DNA of 64,000 nucleotides, from assembly GCA_963753595.1 (NCBI GenBank), contig CAVWCX010000020.1, positions 1-64,000 on the forward strand, written 5' to 3'. Position 1 is the first letter of the stretch; each line of letters begins with the position of its first letter. The DNA is from Candidatus Methanoperedenaceae archaeon. Its GTDB lineage: Archaea > Halobacteriota > Methanosarcinia > Methanosarcinales > Methanoperedenaceae. Shown piece by piece: positions 20,325 to 52,867 of the stretch. The notes under the pieces are model-generated. The model made no database searches. It saw only the letters and a program-made list of their open reading frames with translations, and was not told the DNA's origin. The position numbers and the translations under genes are program-made.

Positions 20325-20894
20325 ATGGAAACAATTATCGGAAACACCAGATTAATCCTCGTATGCGGGGATATCACAGAACAGGAAACTGATGCTATTG
20401 TCAATGCCGCAAATCCAGGTCTTATGGGGGGCGGCGGAGTGGACGGCGCTATTCACAAGAAAGGCGGTCCTGATATTTTGAAAGAATGCAAAATAATACG
20501 CAAGAGTTATCCTGATGGATTGCCAACGGGACAGGCAGTAATTACAACAGGCGGAGCACTGAAAGCCAAAAAAGTGATACATACTGTGGGTCCTGTCTGG
20601 CATGGCGGAATTAATGAAGAAAGGCAACTGCTTGCAAACGCATATAAAAACAGTCTTAAGATAGCTATTGAAAACGGGATCAAAACAATATCTTTTCCAT
20701 CAATAAGCACAGGAGCTTATGGGTATCCTGTTGAAAAAGCAAGCGTTGCAGCGCTCAAAGCGGTCATAGGATTCCTGAAAAAATATAATGGTATTGAGGA
20801 AGTGCGATTCATTCTTCACAGCTCCCATGACCTTGCGACCTATGAACGGGCATTAACCGAAATTACGGGCAGATGCGCTGATTCGACAGGATGA
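20325..20894 (+). CDS. Macrodomain O-acetyl-ADP-ribose deacetylase (YmdB-like)
   Basis: GDIT, AIVNAAN, GGGGVDGAIH, HTVGP, SISTGAYGYP. Confidence 0.93.
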   Translation: METIIGNTRLILVCGDITEQETDAIVNAANPGLMGGGGVDGAIHKKGGPDILKECKIIRKSYPDGLPTGQAVITTGGALKAKKVIHTVGPVWHGGINEERQLLANAYKNSLKIAIENGIKTISFPSISTGAYGYPVEKASVAALKAVIGFLKKYNGIEEVRFILHSSHDLATYERALTEITGRCADSTG

Positions 20895-20955
20895 TACGGA
20901 TTATGTAATTGAAAATCCGTCCGATCCGTGTCATCCGTGTTCAATTCAAACTAAA
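20868..20955. repeat. 9-nt-periodic palindromic element, CACGGAT type (left arm degenerate)
   Basis: 20911-20955 matches 23150-23194 at 42/45 nt; right arm atccgtccg-atccgtgtc-atccgtgtt. Confidence 0.8.
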
Positions 20956-21121
20956 GACCCACAATATGGTAGATAAAGAAAGTATCGATCCTTGTTTTGC
21001 TAATTTGAAAGATAATTATTATCGTCCTATAGTGAGTTCATGGAGTGAATGCTATTTTTCTTGGGACAGACCGAGGATAATAAGGCGCGAGTGAAAGTGC
21101 CATTTAGTATACCTCGGATGG

Positions 21122-22033
21122 TCACTTAAAACCAGATTTTTCTTTCATATTGAAAACATCGACATAAATAAGCCCCATGGTTTGAGCAGCTTTGACTTTC
21201 TTGTCAATCATATCTGTAAACGATGAGAGTCCATCCACTATTAAAGTCAAATCTCCTCCATCAAATAGGACAGTTTTAAGAGCTTTGCCATCCGTGAGAG
21301 ATTTAAGAGAGCCATGTGAGTACCCATTTACTGAAATAAATACTCCTCGACCATACATTTTCCCCTCCACTTTGTAGGCAAATTGATACAGAGCATCAGA
21401 AGCAGTCAGCCAGTCTTGCCATTTTGCCTCGAAAATATAGTTTTCCCCTTCGAATTTTATAACTCCATCAATTTGTTCTCCATTTATTTTGAACGGCTCA
21501 GAAACAGATAACTTTTCATGTAAACATAATTCTCGCAGAAAGGATTCTAATAAATATCCACGTTTTTGTAAAGATATTATTTTTCCTTGCTCATCTTTTC
21601 CTTGATATAGCAAGGTAAATTGGCTACGTAGATCTTCGAGTGTTTTTTTGGGCTTACTAGCTTCTTCATTTATTCTGGCAATATTCTTCTGTTGTTGTTT
21701 CAACTTTTCATCACGAATCTCTTGAAGCTCCTTGAGATGACTAATTCTACGTAAAGCATCATTTTTATCCAACTTTTTAAGTTTTTCAAAATAATAAGGA
21801 TTAAAATTGTTCCAATCAATTAATGAATGAAGCATGCTCCGAAATTGCCCCAGCCCGCCATCATCTCTATTCTGCAATTTTTCGAAAACCCTATCAACTA
21901 TTTCCGAGCGGTATATTTCAGGTTCTTTTGAATTTTGTACGTCTTTGAGATCCTGTGAAGTGCATCCATTATTCTGGAAGAAAGATATTATTTCCTTTTT
22001 TGGCCAAAAAATTGCGAGAATACAATCCCTCAT
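21122..22033 (-). CDS. PD-(D/E)XK restriction endonuclease-like (Mrr-type) protein
   Basis: RGYLLE, EQIDG..YIFEAKW catalytic motif; AT-rich. The frame stays open upstream, so the true start may lie further 5'. Confidence 0.75.
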   Translation of the reverse strand: MRDCILAIFWPKKEIISFFQNNGCTSQDLKDVQNSKEPEIYRSEIVDRVFEKLQNRDDGGLGQFRSMLHSLIDWNNFNPYYFEKLKKLDKNDALRRISHLKELQEIRDEKLKQQQKNIARINEEASKPKKTLEDLRSQFTLLYQGKDEQGKIISLQKRGYLLESFLRELCLHEKLSVSEPFKINGEQIDGVIKFEGENYIFEAKWQDWLTASDALYQFAYKVEGKMYGRGVFISVNGYSHGSLKSLTDGKALKTVLFDGGDLTLIVDGLSSFTDMIDKKVKAAQTMGLIYVDVFNMKEKSGFK

Positions 22034-23072
22034 GCTATCTTTTATATCTTTAGGAAATGTGATTTTAATTTTTATACCACCTATATATTAGATCATTATG
22101 TGGGGAATGGCATTGAATCATTTGAATCTTCGAAATCTTCTAAATCCAATCGGCAGTTAATATTAACTACTTCATCTTCCCTCTTTTCTATCAATAAGTA
22201 TATATTAGTATTTAAAGATGAAATAAGCATTTAAATTCAAGTATCGACTGCAAGCTTTTTTTGGCGTCTTATTGCAGGATTTTTATAAAATTATATGTTG
22301 TTTGGATAAAAAAAATATTCAAATGGATTGCATGTATTGGTTTCCTTTACTGAAAGGCGCAGGAAGTTATAATCACGTATTAATATTCAATAAATATCAG
22401 TCGTTAGAGTCTGATATCTATTCTATAAGCAATTAATTATATTTACCCCAACCATTATCAGGATTTTTACGGCAGGTTAAAATGTAAATAATGCAATGTT
22501 GAATTGGAAAGTACATGTTAAAATTAAGGTATTGTTTTATTCTTATGGGAATCGCACTTTTTCTCTCAGCCACTATGACTTCAAGTGAGGCTTCTGAAAT
22601 AAACCAAACGGTTTTTGATAAACCTATGATATCGTCGATAGAAACAAAGCAAGTTGTAATTGGTGAACAAAATGATGACCTATACATCACATTAGATAAG
22701 TGTTTACCTGACCAATTAATAGGACAGAATAAAGTAATTGTAATTGACGCTTCGGGGACTACCGGACTCAGAAACTCTACATCTGAATTTTCAGTTAATA
22801 GTCTTATTCTTGCTAATGCTATCAACCTTATCCGAAGAATAAATCCCAACACCAATATTGGAATAGTTGCATTTGGGGGGTCTATAAATAAAACAGGGAT
22901 TCTATCAATGAAGAATGAAACTAATAAAACATACCTTGAAAATTTCATAGGACAGATTGCTCCTAAAGGAGAAACAAACCTTGATATAGGACTTCTTGCA
23001 GCAACTGAATTATTAAATTCAACCAACGGCAAAAAAGAGATTATATTATTCTCAGATGGTTTTATAACGACT

Positions 23073-23275
23073 CATTTGTCATCGGTTAAGAGAGAAATCA
23101 TCAAATAGAACACGGATGACGCAGATGATACGGATGCGCACGGATCCGTGAAAATCCGCGCGATCCGTGTCATCCGTGTTCTATTCAAACTAAACCTGAA
23201 AAGCATGGAAAATTAACAACTCTTTGAACAATTGTATAGTACAAGCATGTTGAATTCCTTAACCGATGACCGATG
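23073..23275. mobile_element. 203-bp MITE, IS4 family / ISH8-like ends
   Basis: 18-bp TIRs CATTTGTCATCGGTTAAG (23073-23090) and CTTAACCGATGACCGATG (23258-23275), 16/18 match; 10-bp TSD TATAACGACT at 23063-23072 and 23276-23285. Confidence 0.9.
23104..23185. repeat. 9-nt-periodic palindromic element, CACGGAT type, nested in the MITE
   Basis: Perfect 17-bp IR AATAGAACACGGATGAC / GTCATCCGTGTTCTATT with internal 9-nt units. Confidence 0.9.
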
Positions 23276-25014
23276 TATAACGACTGATAATAAGAGTTAT
23301 GAAGCATTAGAAAAAATTGTGAAAGATATAAAGAAAAGGGATATTGAAATCAATTTTATCCAAATAATTACTTCAGACAAATATTTAGATTTTCTATTTC
23401 TTAGATATAATAAATTAGCTGAAGCTGTCGGTAGTCGGGTAATAATTCTGAATCCGGAAGACAGAGCGATACATTCTAAAGAACCTTCTTTGTTTGAATC
23501 CTGTTCTATGAAAACAAATGAAACAAATATAATAACGGTAACAACAAGTGATGGAACTCAAATTTCAGGCGCAGAAATAAGTTTGGACAATATTTCTATA
23601 GGGGAGACGACTCGTGGTGAACTTGGCTATACCACCCTCAGAACTGGAGAGCATTATTTTACCGCAAATAAATCTGGATACAATAAAGCTGTCATAAAAG
23701 CTGTAATCTCTTTGGAAAATATTACCGTAAAAAAAACCGACCCTTTCAATGACTCACAGTTGAAACCAGAGGTTAAAGAGGTAAAAGAACCATTAAACGG
23801 ATTCGAAGGATTTCAAAAGAAACCATCTTGGTTAGAATCCACAATACATTCAATACTTGGCTGGTTTAGGTAGATTTTTTACCTATTATTTTCAAGTTCG
23901 CTTTCTAAATCTATTTTGAGAATATTTGCTATAATGTTGTCACTTCAAGGATTTACAGGTACTGTGACTTTCTTTACTGAAAGGCGCGCAGGGTGTCTAT
24001 CTTATCCACTGAAATAAGCCCTCACCACACTTATCGCTTCTTGCTTTGTTATCGTTCCACTGAAATAATCTCTAACAGCCTGTACTGCCTCATTCTTGTC
24101 GATCTTTCCATTGCCATTCGTATCATAGCTTGTGGGAGTTGGGGTGGGAGTAGAAACTGGAACTACCTCAATAGTCCAATTTATCCAATTTAAACATGAA
24201 CCATTAACATTATTACAGGTTATATTAGTATAATTATTTCCAAGTTCAGTAAATGTTTTAAGGAAATTTCCTTCTGTTGTTTCATTTCCAGAAACATATA
24301 AACTATTTAGAGAAATCCAATCCACACTTTGATTTGAAGTTACATTAAAATAAATAGTAGTACCTTTTTTTACATTCAAAGATAATGAATCATTATTAGA
24401 TTGATTATTTTCCCACGAAATAATGTTTGGATCTGGAGGAGGAGTTATTGTTACAGAAGGTGCCGTCATTGCAGTATGATTTACCCAGGTTATATTGGTA
24501 TTACCTGCAACATCGACCGTTCTTGTATTTAAGTTATAAATTGTATTGGGGGTCAATCCAGTTGCATTGTAATATTGAATTCCTTTTGTGATATTGATCT
24601 GAAAAGATTCATTAAGATAAATCATCACTTTTTCGAAATCTTCGTCTGCAGAATCTGTCCATGTCCAGTTGATATAGGTTTGAGCATAGGAAATGTTATT
24701 CAAATTCGAGATAGTTTTTGGTGGAGTGATGTCTAAAGTGAAATTCATTGAAAGCGGTAGGTAGTCGATATTGTAAATGTCTAATGAATAGGATGAATCG
24801 CATATTCCATCTCCTTCGCTATCTATGCAGGTCTGGCTAAAACCTGTACCTTTTGGATTTACCCAGAAGTTACCACCGAAATGGAAGCCACCGATAATGT
24901 TAGTGCCCGATTTTTTCGTAATGTTCCATGTATCAATATTTGAGCCAGAGAATTCAAAATTGTTTGTATTATTGAAAATGTTGTTGTAGATCATGTTATT
25001 GGTGGAATAACTAA

Positions 25015-26312
25015 GGGATTGCCGAAAAATAACTTATCTAAATTAATTCCCTTCCTCTTTTGGGGAAAGAGAATAATTCCATTTTGGGTGTAAAGAATGG
25101 TATTCTATCTTCAATCTTGCCATATCTTCATCAGAGAATTTAACTCCTTTATTATATTCCTTTTCATCTAATAGCGATGCCACAGTAAGACCTTTGTTTG
25201 TCTTTGTGCCACTGATCAGTTCAATAATTGTTTCAAAACTAACGAGCGGTTTCCCCTTCCAATTCATTGTAATGAATGAGAACATGCGATGTTCTATCTT
25301 GTTCCATTTGCTTGTCCCAGGAGGGTAATGGCATACGGTAATAGGTATTTTTATTTGGTTCACCAATTCTTGTAAATGAAATTTCCAGCCTTTATTGCGA
25401 CTTCCATTGCTCCCCCCACCATCTGCACATATCATCAGACCTTTTGCATCTGGATAATTATTTCTTCCAAACATAAGCCACCATTGCCTTATGCTTTCAA
25501 CGGCAAATTCGGACGTATCATAACTCATTCCCACATTTACCATTCCTTCATTTCTCTTAAGATCATAAATCCCATATGGTGTCGCCCTTCCAATCCCAAG
25601 TGAAGGAAAATCATACACATTTACTTCTTTTGCCTTGCCTTTTTTCTCCCATGTTCTTCCAGGATTTTTGAATTCTCCTACATTTTCTTTCTTTTTTGCA
25701 TCAACTGATATTACGGGATACTCCTGATTTATAAATTCTTTAGCTTTTTCGTTTATATACCTGAACTGGGCATCTCTTTCGGGAACTGAAGAACCTTCGA
25801 TGTTTTTCTTATTGGCCTGAAGCGAGTAATCGTTTTCCTTCAATAAACGTCCTACTGTATCTGGATCGATTTTATGTTTTAGCTTTTTCAATTCATCAGC
25901 GATCTTGTAGGTTGATTTGTTTGTCCATTTCAGCAGGCTCATTGGGTCGCCTGAGGTGTTTTCATCCATTATTTTTTCAAGATCTCCAATTATTTCGGGA
26001 TCTTTTATTTCTACCTTTTTTCTTCCTCCTCCAAGTGCTCGAAGTCTTTCTGGAGGTTTAAGTTTCTCTGACGTTTTGAGTTCCTCTATCCCTTTATGGA
26101 TAGTCGAATGGGACATGCCTGTTAATTCTTCAACTTTTGAGACTCCACCCCACCCAATTTCAAGTGCTATGGCTCCTGCAAAACGTCTTGCTTGAACTTC
26201 ATCCGCTCCTGATAGGGCTTTTAGCCACCATGTGTACTCCTTGTTAGTATCCATGCCACTATATATGATGGCTTAGATTATATAATTTACTAATTTATTT
26301 TTAGGTATTGCC
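25015..26312 (-). mobile_element. ISAzo13-family insertion sequence (~1.3 kb)
   Basis: Imperfect TIRs GGGATTGCCGAAAAATAA.. / ..TTATTTTTAGGTATTGCC; 3-bp TSD TAA at 25012-25014 and 26313-26315. Confidence 0.88.
25043..26254 (-). CDS. ISAzo13-family DDE transposase (intact ORF)
   Basis: GGGRK, GDPMSLLKWT, YSLQANKK, ISVDAKKKE, ADGGGSNG, PPGTSKWNKIEHR. Confidence 0.93.
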   Translation of the reverse strand: MDTNKEYTWWLKALSGADEVQARRFAGAIALEIGWGGVSKVEELTGMSHSTIHKGIEELKTSEKLKPPERLRALGGGRKKVEIKDPEIIGDLEKIMDENTSGDPMSLLKWTNKSTYKIADELKKLKHKIDPDTVGRLLKENDYSLQANKKNIEGSSVPERDAQFRYINEKAKEFINQEYPVISVDAKKKENVGEFKNPGRTWEKKGKAKEVNVYDFPSLGIGRATPYGIYDLKRNEGMVNVGMSYDTSEFAVESIRQWWLMFGRNNYPDAKGLMICADGGGSNGSRNKGWKFHLQELVNQIKIPITVCHYPPGTSKWNKIEHRMFSFITMNWKGKPLVSFETIIELISGTKTNKGLTVASLLDEKEYNKGVKFSDEDMARLKIEYHSLHPKWNYSLSPKEEGN

Positions 26313-27471
26313 TAAGAGAGATGCCGTAGCCGTTGTTCGATCCATTGTTGCTGCTCAGTATATTGTAATTGCTGGAATCGTATAATACAATGCCGTAATG
26401 GTTATTCGAATTGGCATTGTTGACGCTTAGATTGTTGTTGCTGGAAGAAGAAAGATATATGCCGTAGTTGTGGTTCGAGTTTGCATTATTGTAACTCAGA
26501 GTGTTGTTACTGGAAGACCACATAAAGATACCGCTGAAGGGATTCGAGATGGCATTGTTGCCGTTCAGAGTGTTGTTGTTGGAATAGAATAGAGAGATAC
26601 CAACATTGTTGTTAGAAACATTGTTACCGTTCAGAGTGTTGTTGTTGGAATAGGACAAATCGATTCCATTGTAGTTGTTTGATGCATTATTTCCAATTAA
26701 CTTATTGTTGTTTGAAATGACCTTAATCCCGGCATACGGAGAAGAGCCAGATAGTATCGCAGTAAATCCTTCAAGAGTAATTCCATTCACAGAAAGCGTG
26801 ATAGGGCTTCCAATTCCCCTGGCATCCACTACAGGCTGACTTCCATGCAAGGTCAATTTCTTATTCACGTTCACGTTTTCTATATATGTGCCGCTATTGA
26901 CTTCGATAGTATCTCCAGGGTTTGCATTATCAATCGCATCTTGAATTCTCGTATAATCTGCACCGCCGCTATCATCAACAGTCAATGTTGCTGCATTCGC
27001 ACTGCTTGACAACAGTAATGCCAATATCGTTATTCCAACCACAATTCTAAGGGCTCCTCTGTAAAAGTTATTAGATACCATTTTTATATCCCATCCATTG
27101 GTCTTAGACCATCTTTAAATAATCCAATCAGTAGATGACCCTATAAAGCTTGTTAAAATCTGCAAATTATGAATCTTTCAATTTATTAAGGAGACAGTAG
27201 ATAAAATAAGGAACTATTTTATCGGGAATACTCCATATAGCAATATTATGCTTATCTGAGCCAAATGGGATTATGTAGTTACTTTAAAATTATCGAGACA
27301 CAGTATACCTTAATAGCTCAAATAGGGGCATGTGGTATTTAATCATAGCATTCCCGATGATGTAGTGGTGATTTACTCTTTCAAAATCAGACATTGAAAA
27401 AACATTGGTATTAATACCTGTTGAGACAACTTCAATCTTATTATTTACACAGTTCTCATTAATAATCGAAA

Positions 27472-27556
27472 CGCCGAGGGGGAGATTTGAACTCCCGCTG
27501 TGCGGTGCACAACCGGTTTTCAAGACCGGCGCCTTAGGCCGCTGGGCTACCTCGGC
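27472..27556 (-). tRNA. tRNA-Ser (UGA)
   Basis: GCCGAGG acceptor stem, anticodon arm CCGGT-CT-TGA-AA-ACCGG, long variable arm, GTTCAAATC T-loop. Confidence 0.95.
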
Positions 27557-27611
27557 ATACTTCCTGCGAAATGGTCGGCATGGTTAATAAAATCGTAGGT
27601 TAAGGGGCAGA

Positions 27612-27703
27612 GAAAAACCTTTTGCTTTACCGAGGGATGAATCTCACACCTTGTAATTGTATTACCTATGCGGGCCTCAAAGCTTTAGCGTGAGGTAGTT
27701 CAC
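27612..27703 (+). mobile_element. Non-autonomous IS200/IS605-type remnant (paired end hairpins, no ORF)
   Basis: CCTTTTGCTTTACCGAGGGATGAAT (left-end-like) and GCCTCAAAGCTTTAGCGTGAGGTAGTTCAC (right-end-like hairpin ending TTCAC). Confidence 0.55.
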
Positions 27704-27784
27704 TAATATTGCCTACATGGAAACATTTAAAACTCAATCAATGGATTATTAACCCCAATCATAGAGTTATACAGAGGAAAAAAA

Positions 27785-28108: not shown

Positions 28109-28116
28109 GTGATAAA

Positions 28117-29277: not shown

Positions 29278-30486
29278 TCAGCACACAGGGATCTTCCCAT
29301 AAGCCAGTTCCATGCAGAATTCCTGTATATTGCCAAGCTCCCTGTCAATAACCTCATTTATCTCTTTTTCCACACTTTCAAGCGTTCCCCTCTCCATGAT
29401 GACCTGCGCCGCCGCTATTTTTGGCTGGTCGATCGGTTCTCCTATCTGGCTCAAAAGCCACACATAGACTTCTTTTATATCAGGGACATTGACATATATT
29501 TCATTTGCGATCCTGTGGCTCAGGACATTGTAAATTTTTCCCACGTGGCTCACCGGGTTTTTCCCGGCTGCTGCTTCACTGCTTACCGGCCGGTTCAAGG
29601 GAATGATGCCGTTAACGCGGTTCCCTCGCCCAACCTGGCCTGAATCCGCATCTTCAGCAGAAGTTCCGGTTACTGTGAGATAAATCCCGCCCATGCCCCG
29701 TCCTTCCCTGTCAAGTGTGTTCAGGGAAATTGAAGGTTCAAATTCTGTCCTCTCGATAACATATGTTTTTATCTCTTCAGCCAGTTCTTCCTTTTTCCTG
29801 AAATACCCTGCTTCAGATTCAATGAACATATCAATAAGGGGATCTGCAACTGTCAAATTGAGCAAATTCTTTTCCCGCAAACCCATGATTTTAATGTCCT
29901 CACCCGATTCAGGGAATCTTTTCTTAAAATCCGGGGAGTTCAAATACCGCTCGGTTTCAAGCACTATGCTCTCTGTGGGCGTCATGGGGGCGTATCCAAC
30001 AGCTGCCGAGGTATCATTTGCGCCAAGCAAAGCATTTTTTCTCTTGAATATATCTGTAAGTTCTGCCGAACCCCTGGCGATCTCAACCTGGTAATGAATA
30101 GAATCACCATTTACAAAGCGCAGGTTCTCCTTTATCCATTCTTTTGCCGCGCCGATCGCAATTGTATTGACATCTATGAACTCATTTTCAACTTCAAAAG
30201 TAGCCCTGTCCCCGAAAATGATGCGCATCGGCTTAAGTATCACACCGCCACCGAATTTTGTTTTCACCTCGCCTGCAACAAGCATTCCCTTATCGATATT
30301 ATGGTGCATGATAGCCCCAAACCTCTCCAAATATTCCCTGCACAGGCGAACAGAAACCTGGTTCATTATGGAATCACAGATATTATCAGGATGTCCGAGT
30401 CCTTTTCGTTCAACGACTTCCACTTTTCGCTCAGTTACCGGAGTTGCCCCGAATTCTTCTATCTTGATGTTTCGCAAGGCTATCAC
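29278..30486 (-). CDS. mat: Archaeal methionine adenosyltransferase (copy 2)
   Basis: EVVERKGLGHPD, HHNIDK, GANDTSAAVG, GTSAEDADSG, GKNPVSHVGK. Confidence 0.93.
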   Translation of the reverse strand: MIALRNIKIEEFGATPVTERKVEVVERKGLGHPDNICDSIMNQVSVRLCREYLERFGAIMHHNIDKGMLVAGEVKTKFGGGVILKPMRIIFGDRATFEVENEFIDVNTIAIGAAKEWIKENLRFVNGDSIHYQVEIARGSAELTDIFKRKNALLGANDTSAAVGYAPMTPTESIVLETERYLNSPDFKKRFPESGEDIKIMGLREKNLLNLTVADPLIDMFIESEAGYFRKKEELAEEIKTYVIERTEFEPSISLNTLDREGRGMGGIYLTVTGTSAEDADSGQVGRGNRVNGIIPLNRPVSSEAAAGKNPVSHVGKIYNVLSHRIANEIYVNVPDIKEVYVWLLSQIGEPIDQPKIAAAQVIMERGTLESVEKEINEVIDRELGNIQEFCMELAYGKIPVC

Positions 30487-30992
30487 CTCGTTTTTTTCAA
30501 ATATGTCAGCGTCAATTTCTCATAATTTTTCTGAGTATTTCTTATTATCGCAAGGTCTTCTTCTGTTGCCATCCTGACTTGTTTACATGGCACACCCAGC
30601 ACCACACTGCGGGCTGGTATTTTATGACCTGGGGGCACTAACGCACCAGCTCCGATTATTGCTGATTCTCCAATTTCTACCCCATGAAGTATTGTGGCAT
30701 TCATTCCAATAAGGGCATTATTTTCAATGAGTCGCCCGTGCATAACGCAAGCATGACCTATGATAACCCCGTCGCCGATATGCATATCGTCTTGGTCTGA
30801 ATGAACTACGGAATTGTCCTGGATACTGCAATTTTTCCCTATATTTATTTTTGCCCTGTCAGCGCGAATGACTGTATTGAACCACACGCTTGTTCCTTCA
30901 CCTATTGATACGTCCCCGATAAGACATGCAGTATCCGCGATAAAAACATTTTTTGCAATGATGGGTTCTTTGTCTTCAAACGTGTACAACAT
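30483..30992 (-). CDS. Gamma-carbonic anhydrase family (YrdA-like)
   Basis: IGDVSIG..SVWFNTVIRAD, IQDNSVVH, IGH..MHG hexapeptide repeats. Confidence 0.9.
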   Translation of the reverse strand: MLYTFEDKEPIIAKNVFIADTACLIGDVSIGEGTSVWFNTVIRADRAKINIGKNCSIQDNSVVHSDQDDMHIGDGVIIGHACVMHGRLIENNALIGMNATILHGVEIGESAIIGAGALVPPGHKIPARSVVLGVPCKQVRMATEEDLAIIRNTQKNYEKLTLTYLKKTR

Positions 30993-31100
30993 TCTCCAGT
31001 TACAACCCTCCCGCATATAACAAGAACCTGTTCGCATAAATAGATTATCAGCCAACAAGACACACAATTAAATAGTTTAATCACAATAAAATAGAATGCA

Positions 31101-31700
31101 ATGGACACCATAATAAAGTTCGTTTTATATTTCCTATTTTTTGCGGTCATTCACAGCTTTCTTGCTACGGATCCTACAAAGAAGAAAGCAGAGAAGCTGC
31201 TTGGAAAAGCCTTCCGGTATTACAGGCTGCTATATTCTTTGATCACCATTCCCTTAATTGCTCCTGCTTTCATGATCTGGATGATCTATTCAAATTCCAC
31301 CCCTGTTATTTATGAGATCCCGCATAATTTTTATCCAGTCGTTCTCCTTGTGCGCCTGGGTGCGATCGGTATATTCGGGTACGCCATGCTGCAGATAGAT
31401 GTCCTTGAATTTAGCGGGATAAAACGGCGGAAGAAAAACTTCCTTATTACGAGTGGAGCCTATAGAATAGTCCGGCATCCGCTCTATACAGCGGGAATTC
31501 TTGTTCTCGTCACAAATATGAAAATGACTCTCCTTGATTTAATAGCAGTGCTGCTGATAACAGGTTATTTGCTTGCAGGCGCATTAATCGAAGAGAGACG
31601 GCTGCTTTCGGTGTTCGGGGATGAATACAGGAAATACCAGGAGCAAGTGCCTATGTTCATCCCAACGAAATGGTTTAAAAGAAAGTTATCAAGGGCCTAA
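31101..31700 (+). CDS. ICMT/NnrU/MddA-like membrane methyltransferase
   Basis: FAVIHSFLA, GAYRIVRHPLY, IEERRL..FG.EY..YQ..VPMFIP. Confidence 0.8.
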   Translation: MDTIIKFVLYFLFFAVIHSFLATDPTKKKAEKLLGKAFRYYRLLYSLITIPLIAPAFMIWMIYSNSTPVIYEIPHNFYPVVLLVRLGAIGIFGYAMLQIDVLEFSGIKRRKKNFLITSGAYRIVRHPLYTAGILVLVTNMKMTLLDLIAVLLITGYLLAGALIEERRLLSVFGDEYRKYQEQVPMFIPTKWFKRKLSRA

Positions 31701-35472: not shown

Positions 35473-35580
35473 GCTCCGATAGTGTAGCAGGCCAATCATT
35501 CTGGCCTTTCAAGTTTTATGCGCCAACCGGTGCTGAAATAAAGACAGCCAGTGACTCGGGTTCAAATCCCGATCGGAGCA
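35473..35580 (+). tRNA. tRNA-Glu (UUC) with 34-nt intron at 37/38 (35512-35545)
   Basis: GCTCCGA/TCGGAGC acceptor stem; anticodon stem CTGGC/GCCAG; anticodon TTC at 35508-35510; bulge-helix-bulge motif. Confidence 0.93.
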
Positions 35581-38655: not shown

Positions 38656-38717
38656 ACTAAAAACCGCAAGAACATAGATATAGATTTAAATAAGGTAATA
38701 AGGGATTTATAAAATGG

Positions 38718-38858
38718 AACCGCAGATAAACGCAAATGAACGCAGATTGAATGAATCGGCTGAGCAGATCATTATGGAGAGCCATGTGTGTGGGCGATGT
38801 CAACTGGCGCAGCGTTCCAGTACAGCAAATCAGCGATTCTGGGCGTTCATCTGCGGTT
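38718..38858. repeat. 9-nt-periodic palindromic element, CGCAGAT type, framing a short ORF remnant (38714-38920)
   Basis: AACCGCAGAT-AAACGCAAAT-GAACGCAGAT ... AATCAGCGATTCTGGGCGTTCATCTGCGGTT; terminal 10-bp perfect IR. Confidence 0.8.
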
Positions 38859-40952: not shown

Positions 40953-41022
40953 AACCACAGAGAACACAGAGTTCACAGAGATTGGCTGTTTATTCTCTGT
41001 GTCCTCTGTGCACTCTGTGGTT
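40953..41022. repeat. 9-nt-periodic palindromic element, CACAGAG type (between convergent genes)
   Basis: AACCACAGAG-AACACAGAG-TTCACAGAG ... TCTCTGTGTC-CTCTGTGCA-CTCTGTGGTT. Confidence 0.88.
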
Positions 41023-44794: not shown

Positions 44795-44916
44795 GCCAGT
44801 ATTAAAATCTCAATCTTTTCTTTTTTTTATATAAAATCAACATCTTCCCGCGATATTTCAATCTCGTTTACACCAATCGTAAACTATAAATACTATCGTT
44901 CGTATATATCCGAATT

Positions 44917-44974
44917 GTAGTGGGCAGAAAACAAATTTTTTCATATACCACCACCCCCTAACCTGCCCACTTAC
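44917..44974 (+). ncRNA. Candidate small RNA hairpin
   Basis: AGTGGGCAG/CTGCCCACT stem closing a loop with CCACCACCCCC; TATAAATA at 44885-44892. Confidence 0.35.
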
Positions 44975-45034
44975 ATCCTATACAAGATCCTGAGTCGATT
45001 TTTCAATATTATGTCAATTATATCCTGACTTTGA

Positions 45035-45748
45035 TCAATCACTTACAGAATAAGTCACCATCTTCCTGTCCAGTCTCTTATCCGCAGGATCATCTTCCAC
45101 ATCAAAATGCGGGATCCCATATTCATCATTCATTTTCGAAACAATTGTCTCAAAGTCAGAACCAGCCATCAGTTCGCTTATCAACACCACCACAGGTCCG
45201 ATTATCATATAATCGCAAAACCATTTATGTAAAATAAGGTCAACCCCATCGCCTCCGACATAATTCCTGAATACATCCTTATAATACATTTCACTCTTGC
45301 AGCAATCAAGATAATACAACTGGTATGGTTTCCTGTCAGGAAGGTCAAATCCTTCTTTCATGGCATCAGTAAAATAACTCACATCATCGCTCAGGCTCAA
45401 GTGTTTACCATATCCCGCATGCGTTTTCAGGTATATGAGATCTTCATTCGCAAGACTTTCGCGCCATGTCTCCTGCAGGTTCCCGCTGAAATTACGGCCA
45501 AGAAAAAGACGTATTCTTGCCTTTATATTTTTATTATTGTAATTGAATGTTTTTTGATACTCCACAAACCCGCGTTTGCTATCGGTCAACCTGAAGCCGA
45601 TCGATATTAGTCTATGCCTTGCTTCAAGAAAGACCGTGAAATCAAAATTTGCACCCAGGGGGTCAGGTCCGATCAGGAAGGTCGCGTTGAATTTGCCTTC
45701 GCTAAAGAGCAGGTCATATCTTGGGGCAATTCTGGTTATTTTTGCCAT
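45035..45748 (-). CDS. Hypothetical protein
   Basis: 237-aa ORF; THAGYG and LDCCKS resemble a His/Cys caspase-like dyad. Confidence 0.6.
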   Translation of the reverse strand: MAKITRIAPRYDLLFSEGKFNATFLIGPDPLGANFDFTVFLEARHRLISIGFRLTDSKRGFVEYQKTFNYNNKNIKARIRLFLGRNFSGNLQETWRESLANEDLIYLKTHAGYGKHLSLSDDVSYFTDAMKEGFDLPDRKPYQLYYLDCCKSEMYYKDVFRNYVGGDGVDLILHKWFCDYMIIGPVVVLISELMAGSDFETIVSKMNDEYGIPHFDVEDDPADKRLDRKMVTYSVSD

Positions 45749-45889
45749 GGATTATGTTATTATGAAAAAAGAGTGATATTTAACCTTCGTGTCCATAAAA
45801 CATATATGAATGTTCATTGAAGTTCTATATTATGGAAAAATGTAATATTTCCTGGTATTAAAGAGAAGGAACATATCTGGAGGTATATT

Positions 45890-46759
45890 ATGATTTTTTT
45901 TAATAATTTTCAGGAAAAAATTCGAAATATCCTTAAAAAAATCGAACATGGAAATGCAAGTGAATCCAATTTGACATCTCTTTGTGAATTACTTGATAAT
46001 CACCAGAATATAATACCAGAAGCTATAGGGGCGCTCAACGATATATTGGCAAAAGGCAAAATAAAAGCGTTAAATTCAGCAATCTCAGCCTATAACAGAA
46101 TGGCGCAAAATCATATCGGAATAACACATTATCAAGTAGATGTTATCGTAAGCTGCATGAGGGATAGGAGAAATGACTTGCATGAAAACAGTATGTTGAA
46201 CATCCTTGAAATTCTTTCAAAAATAGCCCCAAAATATCCGGAACGGATGAAAATTGCAGTTCCTGAATTAATTATCGCTCTTGAAAGTACTAATACACAA
46301 AGTAGAGATATATCATATTTCATGCTTAGCATCCTTGCAGCCACCCATCATGAGTTTTTCAAAGACCGATCAAAAGAGATCATTAGGGTCCTGAATGGAC
46401 TCAACCTGGATGAGAGAATTTATGCTATCAAGTTAACAAGGCAACTTGCAGAAAAGGAACCGGCAATTGTAGCTGATACATATGATCTGTTAGAAGACCT
46501 GCGCCTTAACCATCCTGACAGTAATTTGCGTTCAGAGGCGGGATTTGCAATGGACAAATTAAAAGAAGCGGTCCAACAGAAAACTTCGCATGCAACACCA
46601 GTGCAGAAAATACAAAAACCAGATCATCTTATTAAAGAAAGAGCAGAAATTTCAGATGATCTTTTTTCCGGATTATCTGAACTCATGGCGCCAGATAAAA
46701 AGGAAATAAGAGCTCTTCTGAAAGGAATGAATCTCAAGCACTTGATTGTTGGTAAATAA
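45890..46759 (+). CDS. HEAT/ARM-repeat-like protein
   Basis: Repeated helical units (VPELIIALES, DSNLRSEAGFAM); GGAGGT RBS. Confidence 0.65.
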   Translation: MIFFNNFQEKIRNILKKIEHGNASESNLTSLCELLDNHQNIIPEAIGALNDILAKGKIKALNSAISAYNRMAQNHIGITHYQVDVIVSCMRDRRNDLHENSMLNILEILSKIAPKYPERMKIAVPELIIALESTNTQSRDISYFMLSILAATHHEFFKDRSKEIIRVLNGLNLDERIYAIKLTRQLAEKEPAIVADTYDLLEDLRLNHPDSNLRSEAGFAMDKLKEAVQQKTSHATPVQKIQKPDHLIKERAEISDDLFSGLSELMAPDKKEIRALLKGMNLKHLIVGK

Positions 46760-46892
46760 TAAAAACAAAGGGGAACTGTAAAAAAGTCTGGTGCTGGAGT
46801 GAAACCTGAAGCAATGGGCTTATCAGTCAATTCCAATGCACAATAACATCAACACCAAAAGATTTTACCACTATAACTTTATATCCTTAATA

Positions 46893-48125
46893 TTAACATA
46901 CCCCGATCTCTCCCATCGCATTCCTGACCCCAAGCGCCACACCCTCGACTTCGATCCCGCCTTTTCCTTTGGCGCCGTCACCTACAATATACAGATTCTT
47001 AACAGGGGTCTGATTTCCGTTATCACTTCCTGATGATGCTCTGTTAACAGGCCAGCCGTTGGAATATGATTGGATCAAAATTACTTCATAATTCTTGCCA
47101 GGGAAAAGCTGTTTGAGATCAAGGAGCCCAAGATTTATTTCCTCCTTAAGGTCATCTGAAATCATTGCCTGGTGCGACATCACAAGATGTTTTCCCGGCG
47201 GCGCAAGGGACGGATCTGCATTTGTAACTTCATTGATGCCATTTATCCTCTTTGCAAAAGGTGTAAAAAACACGCCGCTATGACCGATCAACGGTTCATC
47301 CGAAGAAAGACATATTTTGATTCCTTTTGAAGGTTTGACATTTGAGATCTTATCAAGGTATTCCAAATCCTTGCACTCGTACAGGCAATTTGTTTCAAAA
47401 TGTCCTATGTCACTGATCACAATGTCTGCTTCAATTGTTTTTCCATTAACGATGACTCCCTTTGCTGAATCATTTTCGATAATGATCCCTTCGACACTGG
47501 ATTGTGTATGTATCCTTCCGCCATTTGATCTTATTACACTGGAAAGTGCGTCTGTGACTGCGCCGCACCCACCGATCGGGATCCCTGAGCCTTTGTAGAG
47601 ATACATATTATCTATTATTTCAAGCATCTCCCGCGCCGGTACATCTTTTGCCGTAAGGCTCAATGCCCAGCCGCAAAAAGAATCCGCAAGTTTAAACAGG
47701 AATTCATCATCAAAATATTTCAATACCCAGTCCCTGAATGAGATATCGCTTTTTGGCTTGAATTTCAGGGAATAAGCAAGAACAGTCCCGAGTTTCACCT
47801 GTTTTGTAAGTGTAAGTTCATTCCGGAAATCATGAAATGATATTATTTCACCGTTCTCTTTTCGTATCACTGCCATCGGGTGAGAGTCAACTATGGTCAC
47901 ATCCGCATCCACTTCTTTTAATATCTGTGCCAGAGGCCCACGCGAGCCGTGCGGTATCATGTGAAGTGCGCCTGTGCTGAGTTTGAAGCCTTTATACGAA
48001 ATATTGGTGAACCGGCCTCCGATGAATGGGAGGCGCTCGAAGATCTCAACATCGTGTCCTGCTTTTGTGAGTTTTGCTCCGGCAAGCAATCCGCCAAGAC
48101 CCGCGCCAATAACTACTGCCTTCAT
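46893..48125 (-). CDS. Phytoene desaturase-like FAD oxidoreductase
   Basis: VIGAGLGGL, ER..IGGR, STGALH, LYIVGDG; ATGA overlap with the upstream ferredoxin. Confidence 0.85.
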   Translation of the reverse strand: MKAVVIGAGLGGLLAGAKLTKAGHDVEIFERLPFIGGRFTNISYKGFKLSTGALHMIPHGSRGPLAQILKEVDADVTIVDSHPMAVIRKENGEIISFHDFRNELTLTKQVKLGTVLAYSLKFKPKSDISFRDWVLKYFDDEFLFKLADSFCGWALSLTAKDVPAREMLEIIDNMYLYKGSGIPIGGCGAVTDALSSVIRSNGGRIHTQSSVEGIIIENDSAKGVIVNGKTIEADIVISDIGHFETNCLYECKDLEYLDKISNVKPSKGIKICLSSDEPLIGHSGVFFTPFAKRINGINEVTNADPSLAPPGKHLVMSHQAMISDDLKEEINLGLLDLKQLFPGKNYEVILIQSYSNGWPVNRASSGSDNGNQTPVKNLYIVGDGAKGKGGIEVEGVALGVRNAMGEIGVC

Positions 48126-48283
48126 TGCGCCTCCGAAATTGCACATACAGGGCAATACTTAACGCATGTGCCGCATTCTGTGCAGTTTTCATTCATGGAA
48201 GCATTGCCAAATACAATAATTGCATCGAATGGACAATATGCAGCGCACTGGCCGCATCCCACACAATCCTTGCTTACCTTCAT
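48122..48283 (-). CDS. 2x[4Fe-4S] ferredoxin (53 aa; absent from the ORF track)
   Basis: MKVSKDCVGCGQCAAYCPFDAI..NCTECGTCVKYCPVCAISEAQ; ATGA overlaps on both sides. Confidence 0.92.
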   Translation of the reverse strand: MKVSKDCVGCGQCAAYCPFDAIIVFGNASMNENCTECGTCVKYCPVCAISEAQ

Positions 48284-50394
48284 CCAACCCCGGCCGCTCC
48301 TATTTTTTCTGCAAGTTTTGCAAGCACTTCTTTTCTCATCCCTTCCACGAATTTGATGCTTCCTACCACAAGATGCCCTCCGCCGCTCACGCCTGCACCT
48401 TTTATCTCGCTGTGAAGTTCTTTCACCATCTGGGGGATGTTCATCCTGACGCCTTTTGAACGCAGCACTGCAAAATCAGGCCCGTATCCGATAGTGACAA
48501 GCGGCTTGCCTGCATTCTGGTTACATAATCTGTCATGTATCTCCCCGCTTGTCTTTCCAGGTGGCGGGAACGTGAATTTATGTGCAAAATTCTCAACATC
48601 GATCACGTTCATTATTGTCCCGTTAGGCAATATCTGCGTTTTAACATTAGGCATTGAGGCCTCAAGTTGTTCATTTATTGCCTCATTTGCCTGCTCGTTC
48701 AATAAATTCACGATTTTTTGATGCCTGCCATTCGAATTAAGATTAAGGATATCATTCATTATCCCCCTTCCATCGTTGAACCTCTGCATGAATGCCTCAT
48801 AATCGATCGCAAGAGCCATTTTCTTCAATTCCTCGATCTTATATTTTTCTGCCACAAGGGCTTTATAAGCATCAGCTTCAGGAGCAGACGACCTGTCGCC
48901 CATGGCTGAAACCGCTGGAAGATGTTTTATTTCTTCGGTCACATCAGGATTTATCATCCGTGCAATTTCAGTACCGATCATTCCTGTTGTCAGTCCATAA
49001 TCCCCGCCTGCGTAAGCCGGGTTCACATGTTCAAGCACCATGGAATCTATAGTCCCGTCAGGGTGATGGTGGTCAATGACCATTATATCAATTCCATAAA
49101 TAACAGCCTGTTTCATCGCAGGCATATCTTCCTCTGTCGCCCCGTTGTCCATTAATACCACAAGCGGCATCTTCTGGGAGAAACGCTCCTGGTCTTCAAG
49201 TGCAAAAGTAATGTCTTTTGTCACATCCTCTAGCTCGTAAAAAGGCGCTTTGGAAGGAGAGCGCCTGAAAAAGTGCCTGTCAGCATCAGATCCCCCGACT
49301 TCCTTAATAAGAGGCAAAATTGCGCGTTCAATTGCGATCGCAGAGGTTATTCCGTCTGCATCCGCATGATGCCTTATGATTATTGGCCTGGATTTATATG
49401 CTGCCTTCATTATGATCTTAGCGGCATTCTTCATCCTGGGTTTTAATTTCTCAAGTATATCACTTTTTACAAGGAACTGGATCTCATGGGGTTGGGCGCG
49501 CCTGTCAATAGCGGATTCGATCTGCTCTTTTATCCCTGCGGCCTCTTTCCCATCGAGCTGCCTTATGGAGCGGATCTCAACCTGCAATGCGCCGTTTCTC
49601 ATGGATGGCTCTCCGATGACTTTAACGATCGTCTCGGCCTTTATCTCAGGATAAGCGCGTTCTCCTGCTTTTTCAAATGCTGCACACTGGACTGTGCCAT
49701 CCTCATCTGAAATGGAAAATATCGTGGGACCTCCTGTCTGCTTTATCTGGATGACCTCGCCTGAGAGATGAATAAGTTTCCCAAGGTACTTTGTAAGTTC
49801 TGTAGTTTTTCTTCTGGGGATCTGTTTTTCAACATGGATCACCTGGTAATCCTTCGGGCTTCTGATAAGGAGTTCAATATTGCCATTCTGGGCAATGTTT
49901 TTTACTTCAACGAATATCTTATCGCCGATTTCCGGAGTGAAACTTAAATTGCTTGAATGAATAAGTCCCCGCATCTGCGGATTCAGGTCAATGAACACGC
50001 CAAAATTAGCATGTCCCTGCACTTTTCCCTCATAGGTCTTCCCGACCTCAAGTTCGCGTGTATCGCATTCGGGACTGAGGATATGGACATATTGTTTTTG
50101 GGCGCAATTTTCACAGAGTTCTCCCCTGCCGGGAATTTCTATTCCGCACATCTTGCATGTGATGAATTTCCCCCTGCCTCCGCATGCTTTGCAGGGTTCC
50201 GTCACTGAGAATTTGCCCGTGCCAAAACATTTTATGCATTTTATCCCACCACCCATCAGGGCACCAAGGTCTTTTTCAGAAAGTCGGTCAAGGCTTATGG
50301 ATTTTGGCTTACCCGTGCCTTTGCAGTCAGGACATTCCCTTTCACTGAGGATTATAGTTCCTGTGCCTTTACAGTCTTTACATTCAGTAGTCAT
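48280..50394 (-). CDS. Archaeal RecJ-like DHH phosphoesterase with DnaJ-type Zn finger, S1 and OB domains
   Basis: CxxCxGxG repeats, S1 (FGVFID), HHADADG, DNG, IDHHH, GGGH. Confidence 0.9.
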   Translation of the reverse strand: MTTECKDCKGTGTIILSERECPDCKGTGKPKSISLDRLSEKDLGALMGGGIKCIKCFGTGKFSVTEPCKACGGRGKFITCKMCGIEIPGRGELCENCAQKQYVHILSPECDTRELEVGKTYEGKVQGHANFGVFIDLNPQMRGLIHSSNLSFTPEIGDKIFVEVKNIAQNGNIELLIRSPKDYQVIHVEKQIPRRKTTELTKYLGKLIHLSGEVIQIKQTGGPTIFSISDEDGTVQCAAFEKAGERAYPEIKAETIVKVIGEPSMRNGALQVEIRSIRQLDGKEAAGIKEQIESAIDRRAQPHEIQFLVKSDILEKLKPRMKNAAKIIMKAAYKSRPIIIRHHADADGITSAIAIERAILPLIKEVGGSDADRHFFRRSPSKAPFYELEDVTKDITFALEDQERFSQKMPLVVLMDNGATEEDMPAMKQAVIYGIDIMVIDHHHPDGTIDSMVLEHVNPAYAGGDYGLTTGMIGTEIARMINPDVTEEIKHLPAVSAMGDRSSAPEADAYKALVAEKYKIEELKKMALAIDYEAFMQRFNDGRGIMNDILNLNSNGRHQKIVNLLNEQANEAINEQLEASMPNVKTQILPNGTIMNVIDVENFAHKFTFPPPGKTSGEIHDRLCNQNAGKPLVTIGYGPDFAVLRSKGVRMNIPQMVKELHSEIKGAGVSGGGHLVVGSIKFVEGMRKEVLAKLAEKIGAAGVG

Positions 50395-50499
50395 AGATTT
50401 GAGTGATAGATGTGTTAAGGGGTAAAATAGGTTACGCGGAAATTATGTTTGATAAAAAAGAAAAAGCTATAAATCCATACTATTCTATCATCGCTTATT

Positions 50500-50634
50500 G
50501 TGAGTAAAATGTTAGAATTGGTAAGAGAAAAATCTGGTTTCGATAAAGAAGATTCCTTTTTCAAAATGCAAACTTTCCGGGCATCCAGAGACTTATCAGA
50601 AGAGCATGATGAAATTTATGACGAAAAAATATGA
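50500..50634 (+). pseudogene. Possible orphan antitoxin C-terminal fragment (44 aa)
   Basis: VSKMLELVREK..DSFF..RDLSEEHDEIY resembles the DxSxxHDxY tails of archaeal VapB-type antitoxins; no toxin follows. Confidence 0.3.
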
Positions 50635-50660
50635 AATAGAACACGGATTTGCTCATCCGT
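50635..50660. repeat. Truncated CACGGAT-type palindromic element
   Basis: AATAGAACACGGAT is identical to 23104-23117 and is followed by ATCCGT. Confidence 0.6.
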
Positions 50661-50682
50661 AAATATTACTTTTATTGCATTA

Positions 50683-51885
50683 CTATCTGATTTCATCGTA
50701 CCCGATCTCTTTCTTTGTCAGGTAGCACGCAGGGTCATCAGCCCAGACATTATTATAGATCGCTTCTGCCCTCACGCGGAAGTTCCCGTTGCAGATATCG
50801 AACCATTTACAGTGGGCGCACCTGTCAGCGTTTGCCTTTATAAGTGGCTTGCGGTTCTTGAGTCCTGCCATTAATTCATTATTGGTATCCATCCATATCT
50901 CGCTGAATTTTCGATCCTTCACATTGCCAAATGAGTAGTGCCTCCAGAACTGGTCTGCGTGGACCGAACCATCCCAGGAAACGCAGCCTATGCCGATGCC
51001 TGTAGAGTTGCCCTGGTTCATCTGGAGTAGTTCTAATACGTCTGCGGCGCGCTTTGGGTCTTCTTTCAGGAGACGGAAATAAACATACGGGCCGTCGCAG
51101 TGATTATCAACGGTCAATACCTCGATCGGAAAGCCCTTATCGTGGAGCGCCCTGGTTCTATCCATTATAATATCAAGGGTTTTCCTGCTTTCTTCATGCG
51201 TTAGTTCCTGCTCGACCATTTTTGAGCCGCGCCCTGCGTAAACAAGATGATAGAAACAAACCCTGGGAATATTCTCCTTTTCAAGAAGGTCAAAAATAGC
51301 CGGGATATCCTTTACATTTTGTTTGTTGATCGTAAAACGCAATCCCACCTTGACGCCTTCTGCCAGGCAGTTTCGCATGCCATTTAAGGCAGCGTCGAAT
51401 GCACCTTTTACACCCCTGAACTTATCATTTGTTTCTCTCATGCCGTCAAGTGAAACCCCGACATACGACAGGCCGATGTCCTTCAGGACTTTAGCCATTT
51501 TTTTATCAATAAGCGTCCCATTCGTTGAAATGACAGCGCGCATTCCTTTTGACCTTGCATATAGCGCAAGTTCAGGAAGGTCTTTTCGCATTGTAGGTTC
51601 GCCGCCTGAAAAAAGAATTACAGGCGCGCCGAATTGGGCAAGATCATCGATAAGCTCCTTACCCTCTTGGGTCGTGAGCTCGTTGGTGTATTCAATATCT
51701 TTTGAATGGGCATAGCAATGGACGCATTTAAGGTTGCAGCGCCTGCCCATGTTCCAGACAACGACCGGTTTTTTGTCTTTTGAAAATTGCAATAAATGCG
51801 ACGGGAGTTTACTTGAGTCGCGCCCGTACCGCAGAGCGTCTGATGGTTCAACAGTCCCGCAATAAAGTTTTGAAATGCCTATCAT
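50683..51885 (-). CDS. ahbC: 12,18-didecarboxysiroheme deacetylase (alternative heme pathway)
   Basis: MIGISKLYCG..DALRY start, CNLKCVHCY, TVDNHCDG, SPASM domain C..C.W..ICNGNFRVRA..DPACY. Confidence 0.9.
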   Translation of the reverse strand: MIGISKLYCGTVEPSDALRYGRDSSKLPSHLLQFSKDKKPVVVWNMGRRCNLKCVHCYAHSKDIEYTNELTTQEGKELIDDLAQFGAPVILFSGGEPTMRKDLPELALYARSKGMRAVISTNGTLIDKKMAKVLKDIGLSYVGVSLDGMRETNDKFRGVKGAFDAALNGMRNCLAEGVKVGLRFTINKQNVKDIPAIFDLLEKENIPRVCFYHLVYAGRGSKMVEQELTHEESRKTLDIIMDRTRALHDKGFPIEVLTVDNHCDGPYVYFRLLKEDPKRAADVLELLQMNQGNSTGIGIGCVSWDGSVHADQFWRHYSFGNVKDRKFSEIWMDTNNELMAGLKNRKPLIKANADRCAHCKWFDICNGNFRVRAEAIYNNVWADDPACYLTKKEIGYDEIR

Positions 51886-51951
51886 TTTTACTCCAATATA
51901 TGTTCGTACAATCACGAATTTATTTTATATAAATCTATCCTGATTGCTTTA

Positions 51952-52221
51952 TTAGGTTAAATCAATTAATAATCCTTTGTGTTCATCAAATTTTATCCTG
52001 ATACCTGAAGTATTTTCCGCAATTTCTTTTTCCACCAGTATCCTTATCTCGCCCTCCATAAATGTTACATCTCCAGAAAGCGCTTTTTTGACAGGGATTA
52101 TCTCAAAATGCTTGCAGCACCCGCCCCCTCCAATGAAAATACGCATCGCGAACGCATTTTCTTTTATTAACTCTTTTCGGATGAGTTCGATGGCAGTATC
52201 ATCTATCAAAAGGTTTGTCAT
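51952..52221 (-). CDS. HesB/IscA-like small protein
   Basis: IDDTAIE..MRIFIGGGGCC..GD. Confidence 0.65.
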   Translation of the reverse strand: MTNLLIDDTAIELIRKELIKENAFAMRIFIGGGGCCKHFEIIPVKKALSGDVTFMEGEIRILVEKEIAENTSGIRIKFDEHKGLLIDLT

Positions 52222-52253
52222 TCATTTCTTTTTTTAATAATTCGGATATATTT

Positions 52254-52709
52254 TTAAGCTATTTCGATCTCAGGTTCTATTATGACCTGCGTCTTCATTG
52301 AGTTCGCAACAAGGCATCGTTTTTCGGCGTGATCCAGGATCATCCTGATCTTCTCTTCTGTCTCCTTTGCTTTTATTTTCGGTCTTATTATTATTTTTGT
52401 GAATATTTTCATTTTATCTACGGTTTCAAGTATCCCTTCGGCCCGGGATTCATAGGATACCAATTCAACACCCATGTTCTTGATCGTGCCAAGGAGCGTG
52501 GTCATATAACAGACGTTGGCAGATGATACAAAAAGATCTTCCGGGCTTATTATATTTTCATGCCCCCCGAATTCCGGAGGCGTTGCCACTTCTATTTCCT
52601 GTTTGCTTTCAATGAATTTGAGGTCAGCTTTTTTCTCCCCTTTCCATTTCAATGTATTATGATAGAGCCATTTATCCTGTTCCATCTGGATCATCCTTTT
52701 ACCTTTCAA
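52254..52709 (-). CDS. OsmC/Ohr family protein
   Basis: PPEFGG, SPEDLF..CY, CLVANS; exact start uncertain. Confidence 0.88.
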   Translation of the reverse strand: MKGKRMIQMEQDKWLYHNTLKWKGEKKADLKFIESKQEIEVATPPEFGGHENIISPEDLFVSSANVCYMTTLLGTIKNMGVELVSYESRAEGILETVDKMKIFTKIIIRPKIKAKETEEKIRMILDHAEKRCLVANSMKTQVIIEPEIEIA

Positions 52710-52798
52710 AATATGGCTTTCCGGATATTAAAAACTTTGTCAAAAAAGAGTTTGTCAAAAAGTTTGGTGGGGGCTATCATGAAATAGTTGGAAATAAG

Positions 52799-52867
52799 AA
52801 ACCGCAGATGAACGCCGATAAACGCGGATTGTGATAGCGTATCGCCGTTCATTTGCATCTGCGGTTT
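52799..52867. repeat. 9-nt-periodic palindromic element, CGCAGAT type
   Basis: AAACCGCAGATG-AACGCCGAT-AAACGCGGAT ... ATCGCCGTTCATTTGCATCTGCGGTTT; 12-bp perfect terminal IR. Confidence 0.85.

Follow-up and report, generated by a model that had tools for sequence, protein, structure and literature searches.

The window analysed here, a stretch of 64,000 nucleotides (nt), represents contig C20 (CAVWCX010000020.1, positions 1 to 64,000) of a 2.89-Mb assembly of a Candidatus Methanoperedenaceae archaeon (GCA_963753595.1; genome code G000) that has 40.5% GC and is 92% complete. Among its genes are cbiB, cobZ, cobY, ahbC, hdrC and one for a Hef-associated nuclease, and close to several genes lie palindromic elements whose inverted arms repeat a heptamer with a period of 9 or 10 nt. 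This report deals with these elements and with the GxxExxY genes, encoding a small predicted nuclease, which such arms enclose elsewhere in this genome and in other archaea and bacteria. The original prediction had placed six elements in the window, and all six were found there. They are listed below together with a miniature transposable element with inverted repeats (MITE) that carries one of them.

20868..20942, no strand assigned: worn CRCGGAT hairpin, 9-nt period; its left arm is eroded and overlaps the stop of a macrodomain gene (ending at 20894), its right arm (20915-20942) is intact
23073..23275, no strand assigned: 203-bp MITE with a 10-bp target duplication at 23063-23072 and 23276-23285
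23108..23181, no strand assigned: intact CRCGGAT hairpin, 9-nt period, forming cargo of the 203-bp MITE
38714..38773, plus strand: first 20 codons of a GxxExxY gene, the reading frame running through the left arm
38718..38747, plus strand: left arm of a CGCAGAT cassette relic, 10-nt period, between cbiB and cobZ
38773..38842, minus strand: remnant of a second small element, of a type that inserts inside CGCAGAT arms
38843..38858, minus strand: right arm (outer part) of the same CGCAGAT relic
40954..41021, no strand assigned: intact CRCAGAG hairpin, 9-nt period, located where cobY and a gene of the proteasome-chaperone family converge
50635..50660, no strand assigned: truncated CRCGGAT remnant after ahbC, with one unit per side
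52800..52867, no strand assigned: CGCAGAT hairpin, 10-nt period, with shortened right arm, between divergent OsmC-family and hdrC genes

The palindromes are real. When folded as single-stranded DNA (ssDNA), four of the six stretches performed far better than shuffled sequences (z -7.6 for 23104-23185, -7.0 for 40953-41022, -5.0 for 52799-52867 and -3.1 for 38718-38858); the other two are weak relics (z -1.4 for 20868-20955 and -2.1 for 50630-50665). Intact left arms begin with AAC, as had been stated. The 9-nt period that had been regarded as conserved was found in the CACGGAT (23104) and CACAGAG (40953) copies; the CGCAGAT copies (38718 and 52799) have a period of 10 nt, which rules out a universal 9-nt period. 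At 38718 the arms had been described as surrounding a variable spacer. These 79 nt are not random and hold the start of the GxxExxY gene and the remnant of the second element; the encoded peptide is 76% identical over 21 residues to an intact protein (locus L018), and relatives carry the whole gene at this site. The second element is itself small and palindromic, has a fixed insertion point inside CGCAGAT arms and is apparently flanked by a repeated 4-nt core; in addition to the window copy it was seen at loci L032, L062, L066, L240 and L250, and G000 holds about eight matches.

All genomes used for comparison are assemblies from mixed samples. Behind the same macrodomain gene, the 20868 element is absent in three relatives (G044, G057, G046), and its left part is common to a fourth (G060). 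A remnant similar to that at 50635 was present in G004 and none was seen in G060; osmC and hdrC, between which the hairpin at 52800 lies, are not adjacent in the relatives examined for this site. The claim that one copy sits inside another MITE proved correct for the hairpin at 23108. The MITE occurs in three identical copies in the genome, and its terminal repeats are those of an insertion sequence (IS) of ~1547 bp with ~11 genome copies; matches to the MITE ends were located on C24, C34, C28, C25, C19, C18, C15 and C4. In the window the MITE is situated between an open reading frame (ORF) with a VWA domain and the next ORF, and both may be one split gene.

A genome-wide scan for three 9-nt units gave 42 exact matches and none in each of three shuffled genomes. 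With seven arm patterns, built from arms observed in G000 and at loci of its relatives, 207 arms at 154 loci were detected (again none in three shuffles), distributed over six variants: ACGAACT (55 arms), CRCAGAG (37), CRCGGAT (34), ACAGGAT (30), CGCAAAG (28) and CGCAGAT (23). The genome thus holds at least six sequence variants instead of the three originally seen. According to rough gene calls, 96 of 112 arm clusters are intergenic, and these are found in all gene orientations, as had been noted for the window, with 29 in convergent, 24 in divergent and 43 in tandem gaps; on the same rough calls, convergent gaps are modestly enriched (29/96 clusters compared with 216/1225). Intrinsic terminators or Rfam RNAs were rejected as explanations, given the 24 clusters in divergent gaps and Rfam matches in the window to two tRNAs only. 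Also in line with the original prediction, flanking repeats at 46 stand-alone hairpin pairs were no longer than in controls, i.e. target-site duplications were not apparent. Different variants tend to pile up: for 71 of the 154 loci another variant is no more than 300 nt away, compared with 17.7 expected and a maximum of 37 in 500 draws that relied on rough gene calls.

Pairing of the linkers was low in gene-less CRCAGAG hairpins (6/52 compared with 19.8 expected) and in ACGAACT hairpins (19/55 compared with 26.8), a signal that was not counted because the copies are related. Deliberately unpaired linkers were rejected as a general hairpin feature, being absent in CRCGGAT, in ACAGGAT and in gene-flanking arms at large. 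In G000, CGCAAAG arms form pairs that face outward and are joined by a conserved link of 12 nt (C2:19740-19807, C7:23560-23627, C24:84531-84598), a layout expected from a tandem array or a circle junction.

ORFs enclosed between arms revealed the nuclease-family gene that the original prediction had suggested to look for. Arm pairs in G000 enclose a frameshifted (C30:60863-61371) and an internally deleted (C2:122568-122947) GxxExxY gene, the gene matching TIGR04256 with 111 bits (cut-off 35) and PF13366 with 139-151 bits (cut-off 22). Three other clades have left relics in the window and at C27:47971, C24:15522 and C10:3776, the last of these between ACAGGAT arms, and the relics of the four clades in G000 each accompany their own arm type. 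In the 92% complete assembly no intact GxxExxY gene was found and every copy is broken; a weak blastn match at C24:150911, which has no arms, was not counted as a relic. The locus set was then compiled from relatives, 80 named genomes and three viral contigs, with the viral contigs yielding only three GxxExxY loci. Of 105 archaeal and bacterial loci with full flanks, among which are one weak match (L028) and several copies of a single site, 78 were found to have inverted periodic arms; among 185 pairs of control windows taken at these loci, 3 did. The arms around most genes point inward. In the ACGAACT clade and at locus L013 they point outward, and the gene there sits between two hairpins that have partly decayed. 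Across many phyla, the inverted layout of three units is preserved.

Within the order, CRCAGAG arms were detected in 92 and the GxxExxY gene in 65 of 151 genomes; 60 of the 65 gene-bearing genomes have such arms, and in one family (f4) each of the two was found in 1 of 48 genomes. Four RNA runs mapped on an intact cassette (G041) covered arm-like bits and not the gene, and were uninformative on its expression.

To compare arms with proteins, 29 archaeal loci, representing 22 neighbourhoods, were labelled by arm variant by eye. Each arm label is confined to one group of the protein tree. After seven rows that shared a site or were identical had been dropped, the seven labels required six changes over 22 rows, which is the minimum, compared with at least 11 in 2000 shuffles. 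Since kin share labels, this fit alone is no proof of co-evolution. Out of sample, 22 further loci were considered, 21 of which have a nearest labelled protein at least 76% identical. In 20 of these the predicted variant was present on one side or both (16 scored by script; four ACGAACT loci by eye in reversed orientation, i.e. with outward arms), and the remaining one has CACAGAT, one base off. The original prediction had assumed recognition by shape or period rather than by exact sequence. This idea finds no support, as the heptamers are each tied to a separate protein clade, which points to sequence-specific protein-arm pairs. The archaeal clades are interspersed among different bacterial lineages in a tree of 111 rows that is weakly resolved, and thus at least five or six cassette lineages are likely to have colonised this archaeal lineage.

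Six residues of the protein (E36, D75, E85, K87, Q99 and Y103) are invariant in all 25 aligned sequences, a set which we take to be the RecB-type arrangement. A structure model (pLDDT 94) found Cas4 SSO0001 and lambda exonuclease as top Foldseek hits (E 2e-4 to 1e-3), a wide structural search returned PD-(D/E)XK proteins with middling Z scores (best 8.3), and a sequence search of solved structures gave one chance match only. On the basis of the model, the protein is predicted to have a RecB/Cas4-type PD-(D/E)XK fold with an intact E-D-ExK-QxxxY site.

If the arms instead paired in the transcript, the protein could be an RNase that removes or processes the insert, making it harmless between operon genes, and spread would be RNA-mediated. 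The frequent location of cassettes right behind stop codons or between operon genes would fit such an element, as would the covariation of the arms at variable positions (0.64 compared with 0.32, in a register chosen for identity), the ends resembling, by their motifs, those of group II introns that abut arms at three loci, and the appearance of splicing endonucleases low in the fold lists. Hairpins in all gene orientations, including the divergent gaps, are however difficult to reconcile with an RNA-level function; the QxxxY motif and the best fold matches indicate DNases, and no reverse transcriptase was seen within the cassette in the loci examined. We therefore regard this explanation as quite improbable.

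Presence/absence polymorphism at orthologous sites was confirmed at two junctions of the window. Among 43 genomes inspected upstream of cobZ, 25 link cbiB to cobZ, and of these junctions 18 are empty, five hold the gene (one of them broken) and two hold arms only; three more genomes have the gene upstream of cobZ with no cbiB nearby, so that it is present in 8 of the 43. All genes at this site belong to the CGCAGAT clade, and on the host tree nine changes are needed to account for their scattered presence. Of seven genomes linked at the cobY junction, three have it filled and four empty, with the CRCAGAG element present in G060 and G044 and lacking in G057, G046, G004 and G045, and in more distant genomes other arm variants follow cobY. 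At the C2 site, G000 has a relic of the CRCGGAT clade and G057, with flanks 93% identical, an intact ACGAACT-clade cassette flanked by arms of that clade; the site is empty in G060, G046 and G004, and in G044 two unrelated genes occupy it. At one cobZ junction (L250:3064-6759 in G051), a gene of 1231 residues lies as further cargo between cbiB and the cassette; judging from its motifs, it presumably is restriction-modification-like.

In two genome pairs the gene is more alike than its surroundings. Synonymous differences between G019 and G051 amount to 12/111 (0.11) in the gene, compared with 0.46 in cobZ and 0.50 in cobS (~148/305; P 2e-13), and between G053 and G058 to ~5/116 (0.04), compared with 119/648 (0.17-0.19) in host genes (P 5e-5; Fisher tests on counts rebuilt from fractions). 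In the first pair the similar tract spans the gene and stops at the right arm; in both pairs the tracts end near the arms, and co-conversion of cobZ was not seen. These sequence comparisons suggest that both pairs likely swapped the cassette laterally in place.

The ratio of non-synonymous to synonymous substitution rates (dN/dS) was 0.03-0.26 in all 41 unsaturated pairs of 48. Such strong purifying selection, together with the mostly vertical inheritance at the cobZ site, could also be expected of a domesticated system with a host task, e.g. restricting or processing incoming arm-bearing ssDNA, in which the hairpins would be a by-product; the repeat-gene-repeat layout is that of SsnA, which is described as a modulator of transformation (PMC11893778). 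Yet the gene is often broken or lost, as illustrated by the exclusively broken copies in G000 and the 18 empty sites among the 25 linked cobZ junctions, it is nearly missing from family f4, and different clades replace each other at one site. A domesticated role seems unlikely on balance.

The hairpins form a deletion series with the cassettes, from the whole gene over partial genes to the bare hairpin. Gene-less CRCAGAG hairpins that have a spacer of 12-13 nt in common were found repeatedly at unrelated loci, where they share 3-66 nt of flank, and gene-less ACGAACT hairpins behave in the same way. Element ends are ragged in general, with shared flanks of 1-66 nt or more. Repeats of this kind might have spread purely passively, via IS-derived MITEs, duplications and transferred DNA, the gene merely co-travelling. 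The three identical copies that one MITE, flanked by target duplications, carries, a further two pairs from related contexts and the persistence of arms without the gene are consistent with passive spread, which however leaves unexplained the match between arms and protein clades as well as the inverted three-unit layout across phyla; moreover, most copies are without MITE ends or duplications. We consider it very unlikely that passive spread accounts for the family.

With moderate confidence we conclude that the hairpins are gene-less, internally deleted derivatives of GxxExxY cassettes that likely spread by nuclease-driven break-and-copy. The arm-gene pairing, the polymorphic sites and the multiplication of gene-less copies are observed, while binding, cutting and the route of repair are inferred. 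The protein would bind its own three-unit arm sequence and cut nearby DNA, probably in hairpin or cruciform form; recombination repair would then copy a cassette or hairpin into the break, and deletion between arms would give rise to bare hairpins. Break-and-copy repair would explain the ragged ends, the lack of target duplications, the in-place exchange and the pile-up of variants. The original description as a REP/REPIN-like non-autonomous mobile family is supported by the polymorphic sites and the enclosed nuclease-family gene; that the nuclease itself mobilises the family is what we infer from these data.

Several observations weigh against spread by break-and-copy. Arms were not detected at 27 of the 105 GxxExxY genes, and conversely 32 of 86 genomes with no gene match still carry CRCAGAG arms, among them the 99% complete G056 with 57 such arms. 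The empty cobZ sites of G060 and G046 retain the first bases of the arm, which suggests loss, and most gene pairs at the cobZ site diverge about like host genes, indicating that the cassette is mostly inherited in place. The low dN/dS fits a host function equally well. With assemblies from mixed samples, chimeric contigs are possible for both in-place swaps. No filled/empty pair was close enough to define exact ends, inserted segments extending 100-300 nt past the arms, and the only precise recent moves seen are those of the IS-derived MITE.

Homing endonuclease genes encode small nucleases, enter a fixed site by break repair, decay, are lost and are re-acquired laterally. The GxxExxY cassette may share this cycle, but lies outside introns and inteins, is flanked by cognate inverted arms and leaves many gene-less copies. 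Like the MITEs of IS elements, the hairpins are internally deleted, gene-less derivatives with inverted ends; unlike them, they have no target duplication, DDE transposase or sharp ends, a contrast illustrated by the MITE at 23073-23275. With REPIN-RAYT systems and BIMEs they share inverted doublets forming hairpins, dispersal, flavours each tied to their own gene, mosaic clusters, the lack of target duplication and the use as landing sites for other elements (PMC3116915). In contrast to these systems, no HUH/Y1 transposase lies beside the arms, ends are ragged and the hairpins form a deletion series of the cassette; RAYT genes are described as single-copy and mostly vertical, whereas the gene studied here is found at many sites and is probably exchanged laterally. 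A RAYT was rejected as partner, the three Y1 matches in the genome all being at least 13 kb from any arm.

The Ssn-NTS/SRM system likewise has a gene for a small single-domain nuclease, which lies between inverted repeats of its own in a repeat-gene-repeat layout, with dispersed repeats and with protein-repeat pairs that differ between lineages (PMC11893778). SsnA is however a GIY-YIG single-strand nuclease, while the protein enclosed here is a predicted PD-(D/E)XK enzyme (PF13366), and here the arms consist of three tandem 9-10-nt units, with six classes coexisting in one archaeon. As partner of the arms an Ssn protein was rejected: the sole GIY-YIG match falls in a frame of 595 aa whose start is UvrC-like and whose contig has no arm. 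As the enzyme differs, the cassette resembles Ssn-NTS and REPIN-RAYT in its working but is neither. A nuclease gene with cognate repeats is a known kind of system, here with a third enzyme family. PF13366 is listed as of unknown function and subject to multiple transfers, with no link to repeats in the accessible part of that survey (PMC3424549), and the accessible part of another study mentions GxxExxY once, beside a reverse transcriptase (10.1101/2021.01.26.428298). A description of the GxxExxY-repeat pairing was not found in the literature searched, subscription journals and supplements being outside its coverage.

A family of unknown function that occurs across bacteria and archaea thereby gains a predicted substrate for every clade, which opens its activity to direct assay on arms that do or do not match. 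Should GxxExxY proteins cut as predicted, they would provide very small nucleases of many naturally occurring specificities. The pairing also accounts for ~150 intergenic repeats in a methane-cycling archaeon, which might be taken wrongly for terminators or regulatory sites, and the arms mark hot spots of gene gain and loss. More tentatively, GxxExxY could represent a large family of sequence-specific nucleases of 125 residues with a readable code between clade and heptamer, spreading by break-and-copy. Several classes would compete within one genome by insertion at or into one another's hairpins, and the resulting mosaic arrays and hot spots would be exploited by other cargo, including IS110 elements and group II introns. 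We see this as possible rather than probable; if true, GxxExxY would join RAYT and Ssn as a nuclease-plus-repeat replicator of independent origin, bringing their number to three, and archaea would have their first one.

Other elements were also observed at the arms. On C18 of G000 (29751-31553), a CRCAGAG hairpin is split in its left arm by a single-copy insert of 1.75 kb with a 410-residue frame, which resembles, we assume from its motifs, an IS110 transposase. Intron-like ends, presumably of group II, abut arms at three loci (L036 with L153 in G044, L019 in G017 and L261 in G044), in each case directly preceding an A in the second or last unit, and one intron lineage may be using the arms as its target.

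The window contains further features. A 303-residue ORF at 21122-22033, flanked by two CRCGGAT elements, has a weak Mrr-type nuclease match, and no counterpart was found among 48 genomes of the genus. Four repeats of 66-69 nt at 26404-26682 lie within a minus-strand ORF and probably encode the beta-helix repeat of a surface protein, and three AT-rich 29-nt tandem repeats occupy an intergenic gap at 61206-61296. The Rfam scan placed the two tRNA genes at 27472-27556 and 35473-35580; the second is 108 nt long and may contain an intron.

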